42,005 bases of DNA from a virus: positions 64,001-106,005 of the IMG/VR virus record IMGVR_UViG_3300037088_000812. The stretch is one strand, 5' to 3'. How positions within the stretch are numbered: position 1 is the stretch's first letter; every line of letters begins with the position of its first letter. Of this stretch, positions 3,642 to 28,237 are shown piece after piece. The notes beneath the pieces are model-generated. The model had not been told where the DNA came from and ran no database searches. It saw only the letters and a list, made by a program, of their open reading frames with translations. A program made the translations under genes and the position numbers.

Positions 3642-4205
3642 ATGTTCGTAATAGAAGGTGTCCGCTGTAGTGGGAAAAGCTTTACAGTAGATGTAATAAA
3701 AAGGAATTTCCCAAACGTGTGCGTATATAAAGATGTAGGATTGCGACTAGCTTCAGAGCGTCAATTAGATTTAGACGATTATGCTATTGGTAGAGATTTA
3801 ACTTACGCTCAAGCCTTGCCAGCATTAATGGATGACCACCTAACCGATACTGCCGTCTTCGATAGAATGTATTTTTCTTCTTATGTTTACGGAATAGCTT
3901 GGCGAAAAGGTGATAAACTGTTCTGGAAAGAACACATTGAATTAATAGAGAATATGTATGGCGACTTTCTTAAAAAAATCCACTTCATACTTTTAGACTT
4001 ACCCACCGATGCAGAACTAGATCGAATAAAGAAGATGCGTCGTCAAAAGGACAAGTGGGATAAGACGCTAGATTTCAAACGTCAGTATAGATTATATCTC
4101 GAAATCGTAAACAAAATCACTAAAGCTAAAGTGTCTTTTTTACCATCTTTTCAAAGCGAAGACTTTATAGTGAAGTTCTTTAAGGAAGTCTTTAGCCCTA
4201 GATAA
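3642..4205 (+). CDS. Deoxynucleoside monophosphate kinase, T4 gp1-like
   Basis: P-loop GVRCSGKS matches gp1 GVKRSGKD (GxxxxGK[ST] with Arg-Ser). An FDRMY motif is also shared with gp1. RBS AGAGG lies upstream. Confidence 0.7.
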   Translation: MFVIEGVRCSGKSFTVDVIKRNFPNVCVYKDVGLRLASERQLDLDDYAIGRDLTYAQALPALMDDHLTDTAVFDRMYFSSYVYGIAWRKGDKLFWKEHIELIENMYGDFLKKIHFILLDLPTDAELDRIKKMRRQKDKWDKTLDFKRQYRLYLEIVNKITKAKVSFLPSFQSEDFIVKFFKEVFSPR

Positions 4206-8641: not shown

Positions 8642-8938
8642 ATGACTGATATAGAGCTATTGAAGATGGTCGTCGAGCGCATGCAAAAGCAGCGCGAGTA
8701 TGATGAGCTCTATATTGCCTTTTTAGCTAAGCTCATAGATGAAGAAGAATTTAATAAGCAGTGTCAAGAATTCGTGTGGACACCAAGATTAAACTTTAAC
8801 AGAGTAGAACTTAAAGACCAGGTTCGTAGATTAATACAGCTTACAGGGACCAGATATACTACTTCAGATTTAGCTGATATTTTTCAAGTCGGTTTTGAAG
8901 ATTTGGATGATATACGTGAAGAAATTTCTAAAGAGTAA
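8642..8938 (+). CDS. hypothetical acidic protein
   Basis: GAGAGG RBS before ATG. Confidence 0.45.
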   Translation: MTDIELLKMVVERMQKQREYDELYIAFLAKLIDEEEFNKQCQEFVWTPRLNFNRVELKDQVRRLIQLTGTRYTTSDLADIFQVGFEDLDDIREEISKE

Positions 8939-9909: not shown

Positions 9910-10641
9910 GTGAGAATATTTGCAAATCATCTTGAAGCTATTAAAGAATTATTACGTGAGTTGAAAGAACTATCTATTACTACGCCATTAAACCACTATC
10001 AAGATAAATGGGTAAAAGGTGATAAAAATTTCTATACTAAAGAATTAATCGGTTATACATATAAGGTAAGTGATGCTTCTGCTAAGCTCGATGAAATGGT
10101 AGAATTCCTTTACAAAGATGAAGCTAAACCAATCATTGAGTATTGCGAGCTTGAATTGCATGACCGCTTATCTGGCGAATCTAAAAATCCAGGCGATGCC
10201 CACAAATCAAGATATAGTCTTTGGGAAGAGTTCCTTGAGGATAAGCAGAAATTCAGCTATACCTATAGTGAAAGGATAAATGACCCCAAACTCGAAAAAA
10301 ATCAAATACAAACAATCATTGACGAACTAAAAACGTCACCTGATTCTCGACAAGCAATAGTACAAATCTATAACTACCTTTATGATTCAAAGAACATTGG
10401 CGGCAAACATAGAATACCGTGCTCAATGCATTATCAGTTCTTAATACGAAATAAGAAACTTCATGGTATTTATGTAATGCGATCTAACGACTTACTTACT
10501 CATTATGTAGTGGATATTTGGCTCGCTAGCAAGATCCAGATGCACATAGCTGAACAATTAGGAATAGGCGTAGGATCTTTCACCTATTTTTCTGGCAGTT
10601 TACATGCATATGCGAAAGACTTCCCGAAGTTTGTATTTTAA
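9910..10641 (+). CDS. Deoxycytidylate (dCMP) hydroxymethylase, T4 gp42-like (thymidylate synthase superfamily)
   Basis: SPDSRQAIVQIYN matches gp42 NPDSRRGIMIYTR. CSMHYQFLIRNKKLHGIYVMRSNDLLTHYVVD matches gp42 CTNTVQYLIRDKKINAVVNMRSNDVVFGFRND. GSLHAY matches GSLHVY. Catalytic Cys is present, and Asp replaces the TS Asn that specifies uracil. RBS TAGGAGAAAG; GTG start. Confidence 0.8.
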   Translation: MRIFANHLEAIKELLRELKELSITTPLNHYQDKWVKGDKNFYTKELIGYTYKVSDASAKLDEMVEFLYKDEAKPIIEYCELELHDRLSGESKNPGDAHKSRYSLWEEFLEDKQKFSYTYSERINDPKLEKNQIQTIIDELKTSPDSRQAIVQIYNYLYDSKNIGGKHRIPCSMHYQFLIRNKKLHGIYVMRSNDLLTHYVVDIWLASKIQMHIAEQLGIGVGSFTYFSGSLHAYAKDFPKFVF

Positions 10642-11064: not shown

Positions 11065-11494
11065 AGTTTTAGAATGGTTAAGAGACACACGTTTAGTCGT
11101 CTTTACTACAACCTACCTATTTGGTGACCCAGATACACTCGAAAAAAATGAAGACGCTATTTATGCTCGTCAATGTAACAAGATATTAGGTGATATAGTT
11201 ATAGTTGGATACGGTAGCGTAGATGTTAAAAGAGGTATCTATAGCATTGCCTGTTCATCTATTATTGGCTTCAAAGGTAAAGACTATATTCTTACTAACA
11301 CCAACATGGAAAGAGATAAGACTTGGGTCATTCCAGGTCATGCAGCCAAGAACTACGTTAAAAACATTAAACCAATAAAATTAGCAGCAGGAGGAATGGG
11401 TTATAGACTAAAACCATGGAACATGTATACAGCTAAACTATTTGACGTTTGGCTAAAGGAGTTGATACATGGAAGCAAAACTCTATCAAGTTAA
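11018..11494 (+). CDS. hypothetical protein
   Basis: Track ORF 10925-11494. ATG 11018 (MTKKEWINFGG) has an AAGGT RBS and the least overlap. Confidence 0.4.
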   Translation: MTKKEWINFGGEAESKVLEWLRDTRLVVFTTTYLFGDPDTLEKNEDAIYARQCNKILGDIVIVGYGSVDVKRGIYSIACSSIIGFKGKDYILTNTNMERDKTWVIPGHAAKNYVKNIKPIKLAAGGMGYRLKPWNMYTAKLFDVWLKELIHGSKTLSS

Positions 11495-11759
11495 TTTTCA
11501 TCAGGGCGAAGACGTTAAGACATTATGGGAAGTTTACATTTTACAAATTGGTATTGCAATAAATGAACAGGGTGAATGTAGAAGATGCAAATTTGAAAGG
11601 GTCCGAGCTCTCAATCAAAATTTAATTGATGTAGATGTCTCATATGATTTCACAGTAACAGTCGATAAATTTATGAGAATTAAAGAAGATTTAATGCAAG
11701 CCACAGATGAGGAGTTCAAAGACCTCATAGAAGAATATGGAAGCGAAGGATCTAACTAA
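11469..11759 (+). CDS. hypothetical protein
   Basis: ORF in the gene train. Confidence 0.4.
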   Translation: MEAKLYQVNFHQGEDVKTLWEVYILQIGIAINEQGECRRCKFERVRALNQNLIDVDVSYDFTVTVDKFMRIKEDLMQATDEEFKDLIEEYGSEGSN

Positions 11760-11973
11760 GCACTTACTTAAAGATGACTCTTGTCGTAACTGCCGAATTG
11801 CCTTTAGTATGGTTGGCCGTTTGGGCAAAGATATTCCAAAATTAATAGCTTGGAATAGATGTAAATGTAAGTTCGACGAGAGTAACATTAACACAAAAGA
11901 AGTGCACTTACAACCGCCCAAAGATTGGATTTGTGATAGTTATAAAAGACACGAGACGTGGGATGGAAGCTAA
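11737..11973 (+). CDS. Small Cys4 protein, paralog family member 6 (KHLLKDDSCRNC...WICDSYK)
   Basis: Family motif. Confidence 0.5.
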   Translation: MEAKDLTKHLLKDDSCRNCRIAFSMVGRLGKDIPKLIAWNRCKCKFDESNINTKEVHLQPPKDWICDSYKRHETWDGS

Positions 11974-12220
11974 AGAAAGAACAATACATTTACTAAAAGA
12001 CGAAAGCTGCGAAACTTGCTTCGTCATTCATCAATTAAATTTCATGCTACGGAAAGATATTGAATTAGCGCTAAGCCAACTCAAATGCAAATGTATAATC
12101 GATCATTTAAACTCAAATGGTAACGATCTTACTTTAAAAGCGCCTGAAGCTATGATCTGTGAAAATTACAGCAAAGATAGAGGCATTATAGTAAACTATA
12201 AAATTTTTAACCTACCCTGA
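11963..12220 (+). CDS. Small Cys4 protein, paralog family member 7 (IHLLKDESCETC...MICENYSK)
   Basis: Start MEAKERT overlaps the previous paralog's stop. The two adjacent members share MEAKxxTxHLLKD N-termini. Confidence 0.5.
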   Translation: MEAKERTIHLLKDESCETCFVIHQLNFMLRKDIELALSQLKCKCIIDHLNSNGNDLTLKAPEAMICENYSKDRGIIVNYKIFNLP

Positions 12221-12276
12221 TTTTTCTCATCTAAACCCCATATATAATATACTATATAAAAAGTTATGGGGGAAGA

Positions 12277-13209
12277 ATGTATTATCAAAATGACGACATC
12301 AATCGTATATACTTCAATGCAATCAGCGACCTATATCAATTAGGTAATCTAACTGGTAAAAGAAAAGAATTACCATTTTTAAATTTCACGCTCACAAACT
12401 CTGATAAAAATATTCTCTTAGCACCTATGTTTGCCCAACGTAATTGGCCGTGGATTTTAAGAGAATGCTCTGATAGGCTATTTAGTATAAAGAATCCAGG
12501 CATAGCTTTTCGTTATAGCAAGAACTGGGAAAACCGCCAAGAAGATTCGGGTTTATATTCCTACCACTATTCAGACCGGTTAAATGGTCAAATGAAAGAA
12601 CTATTGTCTAAGAATAAACATGGCCGAGATAAAATTGTGATGGTTTGGAACAAGGGAGACACAGGGATAGACGGTCGTCAACCTTGCACAATTTTCTTAC
12701 AACCATTTATGGAACACGATAACAAGATGAGTATGTTAGTTACTATGAGAAACAATGATATGATTAACATTTTTCCAAGCGACATATTCATTCATAGTTC
12801 TTATCTGAAATTTTGGTGCATAAAAAACAACATTGAATACAAGAACATCTACTGGGTATCAGCAATTGCATATTACCAAAAGAAACGAGATAAGATCAAG
12901 TTTGTAGACCGACTTATAAATCAATGGAATGGTAACTATGATAATATTCAAACTACTCACTGGGATAAAGATATAATAAACGACCTTGAGATCAAAGAAA
13001 CCATAGAAGCAAATGTCCGAGATGGAGGTAAGATTGAATTGATTAACGGTCTTAAGACACCATATGTCCGAGAATGGACTAACATCATGTTAATGGCTGA
13101 AGCTAAAATGCGAGACGACAAAGAGACATTTTCTCAGTTAAAGAACTTAACATGGACTACAGAGTTTGCTTTTATTCGTGATAGTTTACTCACCCAGAAG
13201 TTTCGATAG
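12277..13209 (+). CDS. Second thymidylate-synthase/dCMP-hydroxymethylase family paralog (pyrimidine C5-modifying enzyme, specificity unknown)
   Basis: DKIVMVWNKGD matches the TS RRIIVSAWNPAD block. QPCTIFLQPF carries the catalytic Cys. MRNNDMINIFPSDIF matches gp42 MRSNDVVFGFRNDY, again with Asp at the TS-Asn position. About 100-aa N-terminal extension. GGGGGAAG RBS. Confidence 0.65.
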   Translation: MYYQNDDINRIYFNAISDLYQLGNLTGKRKELPFLNFTLTNSDKNILLAPMFAQRNWPWILRECSDRLFSIKNPGIAFRYSKNWENRQEDSGLYSYHYSDRLNGQMKELLSKNKHGRDKIVMVWNKGDTGIDGRQPCTIFLQPFMEHDNKMSMLVTMRNNDMINIFPSDIFIHSSYLKFWCIKNNIEYKNIYWVSAIAYYQKKRDKIKFVDRLINQWNGNYDNIQTTHWDKDIINDLEIKETIEANVRDGGKIELINGLKTPYVREWTNIMLMAEAKMRDDKETFSQLKNLTWTTEFAFIRDSLLTQKFR

Positions 13210-13226
13210 GGAGTTATACTCATCTT

Positions 13227-13502
13227 ATGTTAATAGATTTAAAAGACAAGAAAACAAATGTTCACCGTATCCACGAAGAAGAGCTATTTCAGCTTGGTCA
13301 TTTCAGGACTATACAAGATCTTGCTAACGTTGCAGTAGGTACAACAGTAGAGGGCACATGGCCAATAACTTTACTCAGCGGTGAAAAATTCACTGCCATC
13401 GGCACTTTAAAGAGCTATGATTCTCTACTCAAAATCTTGATCCGTCGAACAACCTCCAGGAAAAGAAAGCCCAAAGATAAAAACGACATAATATTAAAAT
13501 AG
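13227..13502 (+). CDS. hypothetical protein
   Basis: ORF in the gene train. Confidence 0.4.
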   Translation: MLIDLKDKKTNVHRIHEEELFQLGHFRTIQDLANVAVGTTVEGTWPITLLSGEKFTAIGTLKSYDSLLKILIRRTTSRKRKPKDKNDIILK

Positions 13503-13921: not shown

Positions 13922-14056
13922 CTACCTCACATAGCGCATATTTCATACTATAAAGTATTGATTCATGCGCGACAAAGAATTAACAAAAAAACTTCTTAAG
14001 GGATCACTCTGTACTATTGCATACGAAAGCGTCTTTCGTGGTTCAATGATAAGGGT

Positions 14057-14332
14057 GTGCTTGAACGTTTCTGCGGTGACTTCGAACAAGAACCTGCATA
14101 CGAAGTACAATGCACTTGCGGAAGCTTTCTAAGCGCTGACATAGCTGATGGCTCAGTCAAGCAACTTTTAGATGTTGTCAGAAAAAGTTATCCAGTTTCA
14201 ATTGCTAGAACTAAAACCTTTGAAGAGTTAGGTAAAATTTTTGGAGACGCTGTAGCTGAAGACATAATCAAAGCTGGTGAAATTGAAAAAAGTTGGGTTG
14301 AGCAAAAAAGAAAAAACGAAGAGACTTCTTAA
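14057..14332 (+). CDS. hypothetical protein
   Basis: ORF in the gene train. Confidence 0.4.
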   Translation: MLERFCGDFEQEPAYEVQCTCGSFLSADIADGSVKQLLDVVRKSYPVSIARTKTFEELGKIFGDAVAEDIIKAGEIEKSWVEQKRKNEETS

Positions 14333-14412: not shown

Positions 14413-15366
14413 ATGGAATATAACGAAGAGAAATTATGTATATTATGGCACTCTGACGCAGATGGCCTATACTCGGCTATTGCTTATTACTTAGCTCAGG
14501 GTAAACCTGAAATAGGCGGCTATCATTCTGTTGATTATGGAATTGATCATTCTAATCTAAAAGATCAATACGACAAGTTTTGGATATTTGACTACGCCGA
14601 CAATATTGGCGGTGATAAAACTGTGCTATGGGTTGATCATCATCTTAGAAGGGATGATACTTGTAAGGGAGTAGAAATTATCGAAGAAGCACCTTCTTGT
14701 GTAAGATTACTAGCTCGCAAGAATATGATTCAAATGAAAGAGAAAGATATATTATGTATAGACACAGTAGACTCTGGCGACTATACTTGGTCTGATTCCT
14801 TCACTAGAGAAGACTTATTATTCCCTGAACCAAAAGATCGATTAAGTAAATACATCATTCTAAACCAGCTCTTAAGAAAGAATAGGAAACACGGTTTAGC
14901 CGAGCGTCTATTCAACATAGAAACTCTAGACGTAGATACAAATCTTTATTACATAGAGAAAGACCCTAGCGCTGTAAGATATACTGAATATATGAATAAT
15001 AAGCAGCGCCTATTTGATAAGTTATTAAAGGGCAAATTCATTAAATATTTTGATGGCATACCCGTCCTATTTACGAAAGAGTTCGAAAAGAACGACTGGA
15101 AAGGATGGGATATGAACATGTTGGGTTATTTAAGTCATAAATCACCTTTCATGATTATTGTCTTTGATATGGCCGAAAACATAAATGTGCAAGTATTAAG
15201 AAATGTGTTTTTTAATGGTGAAAGGAAATCAGTTTTTGATATTCTTAAGGACTCCATAGATAAACCCCGTGGCCATGAAAATATATTGAACTTTACCTAC
15301 AAGACACACAATGAAGCTATAACTAAGCTAGATGGCATAATATCTAAACTAAGTGTTGAACTTTAA
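14413..15366 (+). CDS. DHH-family phosphoesterase (RecJ/nanoRNase-like)
   Basis: Motif I ILWHSDADGLYSA, motif II FDYADN and motif III LWVDHH. TTGGAGAAG RBS. Confidence 0.6.
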   Translation: MEYNEEKLCILWHSDADGLYSAIAYYLAQGKPEIGGYHSVDYGIDHSNLKDQYDKFWIFDYADNIGGDKTVLWVDHHLRRDDTCKGVEIIEEAPSCVRLLARKNMIQMKEKDILCIDTVDSGDYTWSDSFTREDLLFPEPKDRLSKYIILNQLLRKNRKHGLAERLFNIETLDVDTNLYYIEKDPSAVRYTEYMNNKQRLFDKLLKGKFIKYFDGIPVLFTKEFEKNDWKGWDMNMLGYLSHKSPFMIIVFDMAENINVQVLRNVFFNGERKSVFDILKDSIDKPRGHENILNFTYKTHNEAITKLDGIISKLSVEL

Positions 15367-15429
15367 AAATCCTCGCGAACTGACAAGTTAATATAAAATG
15401 CATTTTTTATTAAGTGAGGTGCACAAAAG

Positions 15430-25680: not shown

Positions 25681-26463
25681 ATGAAACTTAAAGATCTATT
25701 TGAAATGGGAATGGGGGCAGCAACTACTTCAGCTGGGGTGGGAGGTGCAGCAGCTACTACATCTGCAAATGTCCAAGGCGTACCCAAACCCGTAGGTGCT
25801 GTCATTACTCGTGAGTATGCGGGATATGATGCCGATCGTAGAAAGAAAAAGAAGAAGAAGGATGCTAATACATTCAGCGCTCCAACGTGGAAACATTATA
25901 AGAGTCCCATGAGACGACCTATGCATGAGGAAGAGGCTCATGGTGAAGCCGTGAATCCATCTGATAGAAAGAATGCCGACGATGGAAATGCCACTAAACT
26001 TGGTCGATTAGCATTCAAAGGTGATAGACCTAGATACAAGCCTAAGAAAACTTTCATTACAAGAAAACCAGCTAAACCCAAAGACATTAAAGAACAAGAT
26101 GAGTGGGAGCCATTACAACAGCGCACTCCTGCTATGGACTTAGAATGGTTAAGAAGAGGTTTTGAAGGTGATCGGCCAGGTTATGTACCCAAGAAACAAA
26201 AGATCACTAAGAAAGACAAAAGCCACAAGGGTATCAAAAAGTCAGTGCCAGTAGAAGAACAATTCATGGGTCCGCAATTATTTTATGATTCATCGCCGTA
26301 TCATGATCTAGAATTTTTAGTTAAGTTCTGGAGAGGTAGCAAGAAAGGCGAATTGATGCGACCGGAAAGTGCACCTAAAAGAAAGAAACGAGAAGATAAG
26401 CCATTAGGTACTTATGGCACTTCAATGCCGACATCTTCTACGCCACCAAAATCAGCTACTTAA
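25681..26463 (+). CDS. Basic K/R/P-rich hypothetical protein
   Basis: TAAATG junction. Gly/Ala/Thr-rich N-terminus, then poly-K and repeated GDRPxYxPKK segments. Confidence 0.45.
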   Translation: MKLKDLFEMGMGAATTSAGVGGAAATTSANVQGVPKPVGAVITREYAGYDADRRKKKKKKDANTFSAPTWKHYKSPMRRPMHEEEAHGEAVNPSDRKNADDGNATKLGRLAFKGDRPRYKPKKTFITRKPAKPKDIKEQDEWEPLQQRTPAMDLEWLRRGFEGDRPGYVPKKQKITKKDKSHKGIKKSVPVEEQFMGPQLFYDSSPYHDLEFLVKFWRGSKKGELMRPESAPKRKKREDKPLGTYGTSMPTSSTPPKSAT

Positions 26464-27619
26464 TATATCGGAAAATATCTCTTATTAGTTTTTTATTAAC
26501 TTCACCTTTTGGTCGACCGTCAAGGTCAAAACTATAAGTATGATTATTGTTGTCAAAACTAGCATCTATTTCGTTATAATTAATATCCATATCCACATTA
26601 GAAAAAACATTTGGTAATACAGTAGTAGTTTTATTACCGTCATATTTTACAACACCACAACGTTTTTCGTCCCCCACCGTACCCGCAATATATAAAAAAC
26701 CTTTATGTGTTTCAACATCAATTTCATCATAACTAGCATTCAATATATTTCGATGATGTTTGAAACTAAATAAGTTTTCATCGCCGCTACCCATGGTGAC
26801 TGGCATTAGATGATCGCCTTTGAAAGCTATTGTGTCGTATTGATTAACCTCTTGATAATTAAAAGGTATTATTATATTACCATTGGCATCTACCATGCCC
26901 TGCCTATTGCCTAGTGTTAATATGACATAAAGTTGCTTATCGATTCTAATAGTTTCATATTCATCATTATAATTAGTTGGTAATATCATATTACCAGTTT
27001 TCTTATTATACATTCCAACTTGATCATCTTTGCTTACTATCAATATGTCTTTAGTGAGATGCTCTAACACCTCGTCGTAAGCAACAGATAGAATTTTAAG
27101 TGTTTTTATATCTCTATGTTCAATAGTACCATCATCTTTAATTAACGATAAAGCTTTTGGATGTTCAAGAGTATCGACTTGATCATACTCATCAGGCAAT
27201 ACTTTTTTACCGTTTGTATCACAAACAGTCCACACATCGTCATCGTCTTTTAAGGCAATAAATTTATTAGATATACCCCATGCGCCCCTATACATGAAGT
27301 CTGTTAGATTTTTTCCCTGCGGATTAAATAATGCAAAATTATTATGTTCTTTAGTGACAATCCAATAGTAGTTGCCATGTGTAGCATCTATTTTATATTT
27401 AGGTGGAAGTATCGTCTTTTTGTGGATTTTGTCTCTTAGGCCGTGATTATAATTATCGTTCCAATCATTTCGTTTAGGCCGTTTAAAATCGCTAATGCCA
27501 TATTTATTAGCGTTACCTACATAGACAATTTTCTTTTTCTTCTTCTTTTTAGGCGTAGCGACGGGTACTACAACTTTCTTCTTTTTAGCTTCATCTAAAA
27601 TATCTAGTATAGAATTCAT
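26456..27619 (-). CDS. WG/beta-propeller-like repeat protein with poly-Lys N-terminal region and a C-terminal KKLIRDIFRYIK motif
   Basis: Only long minus-strand ORF. Repeats of the type G.....GK.ILP..Y..V. The C-terminal motif matches the small-protein tandem family. AAGATAAC box 7 nt upstream. Confidence 0.5.
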   Translation of the reverse strand: MNSILDILDEAKKKKVVVPVATPKKKKKKKIVYVGNANKYGISDFKRPKRNDWNDNYNHGLRDKIHKKTILPPKYKIDATHGNYYWIVTKEHNNFALFNPQGKNLTDFMYRGAWGISNKFIALKDDDDVWTVCDTNGKKVLPDEYDQVDTLEHPKALSLIKDDGTIEHRDIKTLKILSVAYDEVLEHLTKDILIVSKDDQVGMYNKKTGNMILPTNYNDEYETIRIDKQLYVILTLGNRQGMVDANGNIIIPFNYQEVNQYDTIAFKGDHLMPVTMGSGDENLFSFKHHRNILNASYDEIDVETHKGFLYIAGTVGDEKRCGVVKYDGNKTTTVLPNVFSNVDMDINYNEIDASFDNNNHTYSFDLDGRPKGEVNKKLIRDIFRYIK

Positions 27620-27652: not shown

Positions 27653-28237
27653 ATGAAGAAGAAAATTAAACGACCGCAAACTAAAGAACAAAGGAAATTT
27701 GAGCGGGAAAAGAGAAACGCCCGTTACGGCAAACACTGGGATGAAATAAGACAATATGTTTACCAGCGTGATGGATTTATGTGCAGAGCGTGTGGAAAGG
27801 GCGTACCAGAAGTAAAGAAACTCAATGCCCATCATATACTTTTACTTAGAGTAAGTCAGACAAACGATATAAGAAACTTAGTTACGCTCTGCGACGAATG
27901 TCATAAAATAATAGAAACTAAAGCTCTTAATTTACTTAAGGCTGGCGGGCATAGATTTGAAGTTTTTAGAATGACGCACAGATATTTATATGAGTGTAAA
28001 TTAAAAAGACAACAAGCTCTGTTAGAAGAATTAAATAAAAAACATGGCGAGCCGAAGCCCGCCATAGAGTTAGATTATAAACCTAATGTTGCAGTTGTCG
28101 TAGATGGTCCTGATAGCTTAGGTGCAACCGCTGGTGCCGCTACTGGTGCTGGTGTCGCTGGGACTACCGGTGCTGGTACCGCTACTGGTGCTGGTGCCGC
28201 TACTGGTGCTGGTGGGACTACCGGTGCCGCGGGCTGA
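27653..28237 (+). CDS. HNH endonuclease with low-complexity Gly/Ala/Thr C-terminal tail
   Basis: CRACGK...NAHHILLLRVSQTNDIRNLVTLCDECH is an HNH motif. The tail is encoded by 9/18-nt tandem repeats and overlaps the convergent minus gene. Confidence 0.7.
   Translation: MKKKIKRPQTKEQRKFEREKRNARYGKHWDEIRQYVYQRDGFMCRACGKGVPEVKKLNAHHILLLRVSQTNDIRNLVTLCDECHKIIETKALNLLKAGGHRFEVFRMTHRYLYECKLKRQQALLEELNKKHGEPKPAIELDYKPNVAVVVDGPDSLGATAGAATGAGVAGTTGAGTATGAGAATGAGGTTGAAG

Follow-up and report, generated by a model that had tools for sequence, protein, structure and literature searches.

A conserved thymidylate synthase homolog with a predicted cytosine-type, atypical active site in an uncultured phage lineage

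A stretch of viral DNA of 42,005 nucleotides (positions 64,001 to 106,005 of IMG/VR record IMGVR_UViG_3300037088_000812), hereafter the window, carries two genes of the thymidylate synthase (TS) family on its plus strand, of which the downstream one, designated TS2, is the subject of this analysis. TS2 is an open reading frame (ORF) of 310 amino acids (aa) with an ATG start at 12277–13209, as delimited by the ORF listing, Pfam PF00303, its homolog family and an AlphaFold2 (AF2) model, and a Shine-Dalgarno-like GGGGGAAG, read from the sequence, lies at 12268–12275 and ends 1 nt before the ATG. The protein comprises a TS catalytic core (residues 1–203; 12277–12885), which takes in the N-terminal ~100 aa, and a C-terminal helical domain (residues 204–310; 12886–13206), which is delimited by DSSP and by structural alignment with MilA, the CMP 5-hydroxymethylase of Streptomyces rimofaciens (PDB 5jnh/5b6d), and is of the MilA type. 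Three invariant residues placed by alignment are central to what follows, including the predicted catalytic nucleophile Cys137 (codon 12685–12687; ThyA Cys146), Arg134 (codon 12676–12678; the position of ThyA Leu143 and of Asp145 in T4 dCMP hydroxymethylase, dCH) and Asp169 (codon 12781–12783; the base-specificity determinant at ThyA Asn177). The upstream gene, TS1, is a gp42-like gene of 243 aa at 9910–10641 (PF00303, E 5.8e-20) located 1,636 bp from TS2, in agreement with the original prediction of two TS-family genes with Asp at position 177 about 1.6 kb apart. A promoter and terminator scan around the TS genes returned 13 matches, compared with 17.5 in shuffled sequence.

As a single sequence, TS2 matched PF00303 with an E value of 6.5e-6 (25.9 bits, where the gathering score is 24.3; residues 79–206) and phrog_160 'thymidylate synthase' with 3.3e-9, and a phmmer search of PDB sequences returned thymidylate synthases only (best E 0.005), one of them deposited as 'ORF70'. 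About 50 homologs were found in metagenomes, at 50–100% identity and each of about 310 aa, some on contigs of 56–278 kb, and the alignment of this family, A1, contains 71 invariant columns. The profile-profile comparison of A1 with a ThyA-set alignment (E. coli ThyA, T4 gp42, RB69 gp48, SPO1 gp29 and TS1) gave a probability of 98.8% and an E value of 4.9e-17, with TS2 residues 6–198 corresponding to ThyA residues 2–206. Together, the Pfam, PHROG and profile-profile matches place TS2 in the TS family beyond chance, though weakly when the single sequence is taken, and TS2 combines both marks of the superfamily, a significant profile match and the TS alpha/beta fold.

An exhaustive profile search of 1.84 billion representatives yielded 898 proteins with E values up to 1e-3, of which 13 reached E ≤ 1e-30, and at 50% identity clustering the tight TS2 clade is reduced to a single representative. 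A sister clade of about 20 representatives was recognized at 27–30% identity, with lengths of 283–349 aa plus one protein of 640 aa, and it has in common with TS2 the signature Arg/Lys83, Asp/Glu127, Arg143, Asp177 and Tyr207 (ThyA numbering, as used below for positions). In a rough neighbour-joining tree over 151 core columns, TS2 and the sister clade formed one group adjoining the TS1-like group. Megablast of 7 kb around TS2 against 50,697 phage records gave zero matches, and tblastn of TS2 and one sister-clade protein retrieved only generic 'thymidylate synthase' genes at 23–35% identity. No cellular homologs of TS2 were found in a first scan of genome contigs; a second scan gave two sister-clade matches, both in metagenome-assembled genomes (MAGs) labelled DPANN archaea. 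One of the two, L041 (DATDSF010000038.1, from a MAG labelled Candidatus Nanoarchaeia), and the viral contig L018 (IMG/VR UViG 3300025000_000075) have the MazG-like, TS2-like, dNMP-kinase-like and pyrimidine-dimer glycosylase genes in common, at equal spacing and a GC content of 29%. Because these four genes match at 100% amino-acid identity, the two loci appear to represent the same virus, either binned into a DPANN archaeal MAG or infecting such hosts.

The AF2 model of TS2, computed from A1, reached a mean predicted local distance difference test score (pLDDT) of 91.9 and a predicted template-modelling score (pTM) of 0.91. By a wide margin, its closest structure is MilA, with a score of 32.3, a root-mean-square deviation of 2.1 Å, a Foldseek template-modelling score of 0.80 and 289 of the 310 residues aligned, whereas the scores were 21.0 for the HY126 flavin-dependent dCMP hydroxylase (209 residues), 19.6 for ThyA (223 residues) and 15.4 for T4 dCH (197 residues), these short TS-fold proteins aligning over about 200–225 residues only. 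MilA has a TS core followed by an additional five-helix C-terminal domain (PMC5175136), and TS2 exhibits the same architecture, its C-terminal part harbouring helices at residues 209–215, 231–248, 262–278, 282–289 and 297–303 of the model; the TS2 C-terminal profile also matched, weakly and in register, the ends of other long TS-like proteins at their C-terminal side. The original prediction had described a 100-aa N-terminal extension without an obvious counterpart. Such an extension does not exist, because the N-terminal residues align with ThyA, the first ~100 of them forming the usual N-terminal portion of the TS fold, and the extra length is C-terminal, the surplus of about 100 residues (about 204–310) finding its counterpart in MilA. 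The stretch 'NWPWILRE', which had been taken as part of the extension, is the helix bearing Glu63 (ThyA Glu58), and the call is an artefact of motifs read without alignment. The remainder of that description, a TS-family gene with three motif blocks, stands, the blocks being found at residues 118–128, 134–144 and 157–171, and the corrected layout averts a spurious 'novel N-terminal domain' annotation.

The active site of TS2 was mapped with hhalign and two MAFFT alignments. Residues kept from ThyA include Arg21 (Lys28/Arg29 in TS2), Glu58 (Glu63), Trp80 (Trp84), Tyr94 (Tyr98), Arg126' of the partner subunit (Arg117), Cys146 (Cys137), Arg166 (Arg158) and the folate-anchoring Asp169 (Asp161). 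Altered positions include Asn177 (Asp169), Leu143 (Arg134), Trp83 (Arg87), Arg127' (Asp118), Ser167 (Asn159), His147 (Thr138), Gly173 (Ile165) and His207 (Tyr199), while Tyr96 of TS2 occupies the position of Ser94 in T4 dCH. For ThyA Tyr209 the two MAFFT alignments disagree, one giving Tyr200 with a one-residue deletion and the other, ungapped, giving Gln201. Cys137 is invariant in 48 members of the TS2 family and in 18 sister-clade proteins, and Glu63, Tyr98, Arg158 and Asp161, which complete the catalytic set of the superfamily, are likewise invariant, as are Arg134 and Asp169.

The exchange N177D makes dCMP the preferred substrate, that is, cytosine and not uracil (PMC8670742; PMC13326640), and Asp169 at this position argues for a cytosine substrate of TS2; the part of the earlier interpretation that proposed a cytosine-type C5 enzyme is therefore retained. 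The exchange D169N marks the flavin-dependent 5-hydroxy-dCMP synthases, and the retention of Asp161 indicates that TS2 is not a hydroxylase of the RB69 type. Hydroxymethylases are recognized by Asp or Glu three residues before the Cys and Ser or Thr two residues before the catalytic Tyr, the D145N mutant of T4 dCH is inactive, and positions 83 and 143 form a hydrophobic solvent gate in ThyA (PMC6400193; the role of position 143 is also described in PMC13326640).

Compared with characterized members of the superfamily, TS2 shows a mosaic of likenesses and differences, and an alignment with T4 gp42, Xp12, SPO1 and ThyA placed the Cys and the Asp at 177 and yielded a signature that matches none of them. 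Canonical ThyA has Asn177, where TS2 has Asp169, and in place of the ThyA gate and sealing tail TS2 has Arg134/Arg87 and the C-terminal helical domain, with no tail; the NCBIfam ThyA equivalogs scored 17–24 bits against cut-offs of 108–405. MilA, to which TS2 has only 12–14% identity, carries Asp at the Leu143 position (Arg134 in TS2), its ribo-preference is determined by Ala176 and Lys133', where TS2 has Asn159 and Arg117, its His216/Tyr218 correspond to Tyr199 and Tyr200/Gln201, and it serves bacterial antibiotic biosynthesis, while TS2 is one of the core genes on phage contigs of the lytic type. T4 gp42 (PDB 1b5e/6a9a) resembles TS2 in the TS fold, the catalytic Cys, Glu and Tyr, the Asp at 177, the folate-anchoring Asp and the lack of a ThyA tail. 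The flavin-dependent RB69 gp48 and HY126 AfhB (PDB 9iqc/9iqu) carry D169N and Glu at 143 and have no C-terminal domain, whereas TS2 keeps Asp161 and has Arg at 143. With the Xp12 dCMP methylase homolog (MT664984, 45326–46195), a single homolog whose gene assignment is inferred, TS2 has the TS family and Asp177 in common and nothing else, since that protein has Arg126/Arg127, Asn143, His207/Tyr209 and a ThyA-like C-terminal tail; it is the one TS homolog of its genome and is flanked by genes for dihydrofolate reductase (DHFR) and dCMP deaminase. SPO1 gp29, a dUMP hydroxymethylase, belongs to a third TS group with Asp at 143 and has Asn177, as against Arg134 and Asp169 in TS2. On these alignments, TS2 reads as a cytosine-specific, folate-type TS homolog outside all five characterized sub-signatures, and would belong to an uncharacterized 'Arg-143' branch.

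TS1 falls into the short group of that type (about 230–245 aa), which has Arg at 143 and the motif S-Y-x-Y-S and keeps Ser167, His207 and Tyr209, and its best matches among PDB sequences were MilA (E 6.7e-13) and T4 dCMP hydroxymethylase (E 1.6e-6). TS1 and its relatives resemble TS2 in Arg143, S-Y-x-Y-S-[DE]-R, Trp80, Asp169 and Asp177, and differ from it in having no C-terminal domain and in carrying Ser167, His207, Tyr209, Gln127 and His173. The core identity of TS1 and TS2 is only about 26% and the two lie in separate clades, which rules out TS2 as a recent duplicate of TS1. Two TS-family genes in one phage are ordinary, as T4 has td and gene 42; two members with Asp at 177, one of them from a long-form subfamily with a deviant active site, are less ordinary. 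Two proteins of the short TS1-like group, P0103 and P0123, carry the D169N of 5-hydroxy-dCMP synthases, and this group too may be one in which hydroxylase chemistry arose or to which it spread. Between TS1 and TS2 lie tandem small Cys-rich paralogous ORFs (11737–11973 and 11960–12220) with the motifs MEAKxxTxHLLKDxSCxxC...CKC...IC, and the ORF at 13965–14132, downstream of TS2, carries their N-terminal motif.

The source contig, about 178 kb long, has genes for gp32, a FEN-type exonuclease, a split DNA polymerase III alpha, a CCA-adding enzyme, NUDIX and HSP20 proteins, and 13 related loci, referred to by L numbers, have the order CCA-adding enzyme, (MazG-like), HSP20, dNMP kinase, a variable slot, TS2, (RtcB), DHH-like and gp32, the genes in brackets not being constant. 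TS2 was present in every related locus, while TS1 was found in the window and in L015, L025, L034, L037, L038 and L040 and, as a distant version, in L024, and was absent from L007, L039, L005 and L021. The loci with ThyX are L007, L039 and L038; as L038 contains ThyX, TS1 and TS2 together, ThyX is ruled out as the alternative occupant of the TS1 slot. An obligate heterodimer of TS1 and TS2 is similarly ruled out by the occurrence of TS2 without TS1.

A MazG/dUTPase_2-like nucleotide pyrophosphohydrolase, a candidate dCTPase, is encoded at 1187–1807 on the plus strand (phrog_12184, E 9.1e-12; weak Pfam dUTPase_2, E 0.009) and is homologous to genes beside the sister-clade TS2-like genes. Among lineages for which 9 kb or more of upstream sequence is available, TS1 and the MazG-like gene were both present in the window, L015, L037, L038 and L040 and both absent from L007, L005 and L021, a co-variation observed in 8/8 loci, these being related lineages (n=8) with 10 kb of flank visible; TS2 does not co-vary with the MazG-like gene. 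This joint presence and absence suggests that TS1, and not TS2, is the accessory gene, with MazG-like and TS1 resembling the gp56 dCTPase/gp42 pair of T4, and TS2 is the constant, conserved pyrimidine-C5 enzyme of its uncultured phage lineage. A thymidylate-kinase-like dNMP kinase gene lies at 3642–4205 on the plus strand (Pfam Thymidylate_kin, E 8.1e-7, 29.3 bits; TIGR00041, E 8e-8), and among the loci with about 10 kb of upstream flank its homologs were found in L015, L037, L038, L040, L007 and L005 and were not detected in L021. In three distinct lineages of the sister clade, MazG/dUTPase_2-like, (ThyX), TS2-like and thymidylate-kinase-like genes lie within about 3 kb, a parallel to the dCTPase, hydroxymethylase and dNMP kinase logic of the T4 pathway, and this neighbourhood is a good guilt-by-association sign of an enzyme type that feeds a modified dNMP into DNA synthesis. 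Neither DHFR nor dCMP deaminase was found by tblastn in any TS2 locus, and PHROGs and Pfam searches of about 40 window proteins left most unmatched and gave no glycosyltransferase, DHFR, dCMP deaminase, ThyA or ThyX.

Several other genes of the neighbourhood were also recorded. Adjoining the MazG-like gene, a nucleoside diphosphate (NDP)-sugar 4,6-dehydratase/epimerase is encoded at 19–897 (Pfam GDP_Man_Dehyd, E 7e-41; NCBIfam dTDP-glucose 4,6-dehydratase, E 1.7e-27); its gene begins just upstream of the window (307 aa at 8788–9711 in L035) and is limited to this lineage, being absent from L015, L037, L038, L040, L007, L005 and L021. This enzyme may be the source of an unusual sugar for base glycosylation after modification, similar to the RB69 cluster. 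At 14413–15366 a conserved gene of 317 aa with DxD and DHH motifs (weak Pfam DHH, E 0.0037) recurs 1–6 kb downstream of TS2 in every long locus examined, at 40–54% identity, and its product may be a RecJ/NrnA-like phosphoesterase producing mononucleotides. In L037 the 347-aa ORF at 12157–13200 is listed as PF01368 (DHH), and the tblastn match to the 317-aa protein is the adjacent 319-aa gene at 14437–15396. RtcB follows TS2 in most relatives and is absent from the window; in L005, a contig of 278 kb, the RtcB RNA ligase directly downstream of TS2 (11179–13470, 763 aa) bears an intein (Pfam Intein_splicing and RtcB). Upstream on the window's contig (L035, 1–4110), DNA polymerase III alpha is apparently split into an HHH_6 fragment and a 416-aa ORF with PHP and DNA_pol3_alpha, which is unusual for a phage with a T4-type gp32. 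An HNH endonuclease, probably a homing endonuclease, is encoded at 27653–28237 (phrog_589, E 3.6e-17), and adjoining it, at 26456–27619 on the minus strand, where genes are few, lies a 387-aa WG-repeat protein (Pfam WG_beta_rep, E 6.7e-8).

From the fold, the residue conservation and the gene-context patterns described above, TS2 is very probably a complete and active homodimeric enzyme that transfers a one-carbon unit to C5 of a cytosine 5'-mononucleotide in a folate-dependent reaction, its substrate and cofactor being predicted, as are its product and destination. By homology, Cys137 would attack C6 of the cytosine 5'-mononucleotide, with Asp169 selecting the base and the phosphate gripped by Lys28/Arg29, Arg158 and Arg117' of the partner subunit, whereupon 5,10-methylene-tetrahydrofolate, anchored by Asp161 and Trp84, would donate its one-carbon unit to C5 through an acid/base network of Glu63 and Tyr98. 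The exocyclic methylene would then be hydrated, most likely to 5-hydroxymethyl-(d)CMP, which the phage dNMP kinase could phosphorylate for incorporation into DNA, while TS1 and the MazG-like pyrophosphatase would constitute a separate, dispensable module. Among products 5-hydroxymethyl-dCMP seems the most likely because of the MilA-like architecture, the missing sealing tail, the polar 83/143 gate, the lack of DHFR and the neighbouring genes for a kinase and a pyrophosphatase, and this full hydroxymethylase reading has an even chance of being correct. Several findings weigh against it. The published hydroxymethylase signature is lacking, with Arg134 in place of Asp/Glu and Tyr96 in place of Ser/Thr; the sugar and phosphate contacts Asp118, Asn159 and Tyr199, and also Arg87 at Trp83, are unlike those of every characterized member, so that the sugar of the substrate or the product could differ; a MazG-like dCTPase was not detected within 10 kb in three TS2-bearing lineages; and neither the TS2 clade nor the sister clade contained a cultured-phage member or an informative name in tblastn and cluster look-ups. 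Moreover, TS1 and TS2 are both kept in at least five lineages, and if TS2 made 5-hydroxymethyl-dCMP, TS1 in the same genome would look redundant.

It is possible, though not probable, that the same fold and C6/C5 chemistry serve another substrate sugar or lead to another final product, for example through a preference for ribo-CMP like that of MilA, the closest structure, or through capture of the methylene by neither water nor hydride, giving a new 5-substituted cytosine, and the two genes found together would then be non-redundant, differing in substrate or product. TS1 and TS2 have the base and C5 surroundings in common (Arg143, the Tyr that precedes the catalytic Tyr by two residues, Asp177, Asp169 and Glu58) and differ at positions 127', 167 and 207/209, which are sugar and phosphate contacts of ThyA, T4 dCH and MilA, while the invariant acidic 127' and basic 83 occur only in TS2 and the sister clade; with the TS2-specific changes on the sugar and phosphate side and the base side in common, it is this part of the substrate, or the product, that may differ. 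In the superfamily, D169N alone already marks an entirely different chemistry. However, the MilA pair Ala176/Lys133' is not present in TS2, the dUTPase_2-like and thymidylate-kinase-like neighbours of the sister clade fit a deoxynucleotide-to-DNA route, and the analysis turned up no candidate for a co-substrate enzyme. A dCMP methylase of the Xp12 type, producing 5-methyl-dCMP for 5-methylcytosine DNA or, after deamination, for dTMP, is unlikely; dCMP methylation was one of the candidate activities named in the original prediction. Asp at 177 does turn a TS into a dCMP methylase (PMC8670742), TS2 is without the acidic residue at 143 thought to activate water, L005 and L021 have no ThyX or ThyA within 10 kb, and a route from 5-methyl-dCMP to dTMP has been reported for Xp12 (reference 108 in PMC8543423); but the Arg126/Arg127, His207/Tyr209, ThyA-like tail and DHFR and deaminase flanks of Xp12 are found neither in TS2 nor in its loci, and hydride transfer would be ill-suited to a site made very polar by Arg at both 83 and 143.

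The model of the original prediction, in which TS2 is a second, derived paralog, has a novel N-terminal domain and either further elaborates hydroxymethylcytosine or hydroxymethylates dUMP, is highly improbable. It has in its favour the two Asp-177 genes 1.6 kb apart, but the N-terminal 100 aa are an ordinary TS N-terminal region, TS2 cannot depend on a product of TS1 because it occurs without TS1 in L005, L007, L021 and L039, and Asp at 177, where SPO1 gp29 has Asn, counts against dUMP. Very little credence is likewise given to TS2 as a TS-fold protein without catalytic activity that serves a structural or regulatory purpose, such as a scaffold in a nucleotide-synthesis complex; the replacement of several canonical substrate contacts and a Pfam score barely above the cut-off would fit such a role, whereas the catalytic set, made up of the nucleophile Cys with Glu, Tyr, Arg and Asp, is strictly invariant down to 23–30% identity, which is not expected of a pseudo-enzyme. 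A more far-reaching and rather doubtful proposal, drawn from the residue patterns, is that TS2 and its sister clade are a functionally new TS branch, marked by Arg143, the Tyr two residues before the catalytic Tyr, acidic 127', basic 83 and Tyr207 and specifying something outside the five known activities. If so, a ribonucleotide or other substrate, or a C5 group other than methyl, hydroxymethyl or hydroxyl, would be involved, and phages with TS1 as well as TS2 would produce two different modified cytosine nucleotides.

Phage DNA hypermodifications begin with TS-family enzymes, and the D169N-marked members, which carry out flavin-dependent hydroxylation to 5-hydroxycytosine, illustrate how unexpected the chemistry of this family can be. 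The subfamily defined by TS2 is conserved in uncultured phages and has an active site outside the published methylase, hydroxymethylase and hydroxylase signatures. TS2 is also accompanied by another cytosine-specific TS homolog, a candidate dCTPase, a dNMP kinase and an NDP-sugar enzyme. New chemistry is not demonstrated here, and TS2 is a well-defined, testable lead for phage DNA modification: if its product is ordinary 5-hydroxymethyl-dCMP, the published 'signature residues' of hydroxymethylases would need revision, and if the product differs, TS2 would represent a new modified base or pathway.
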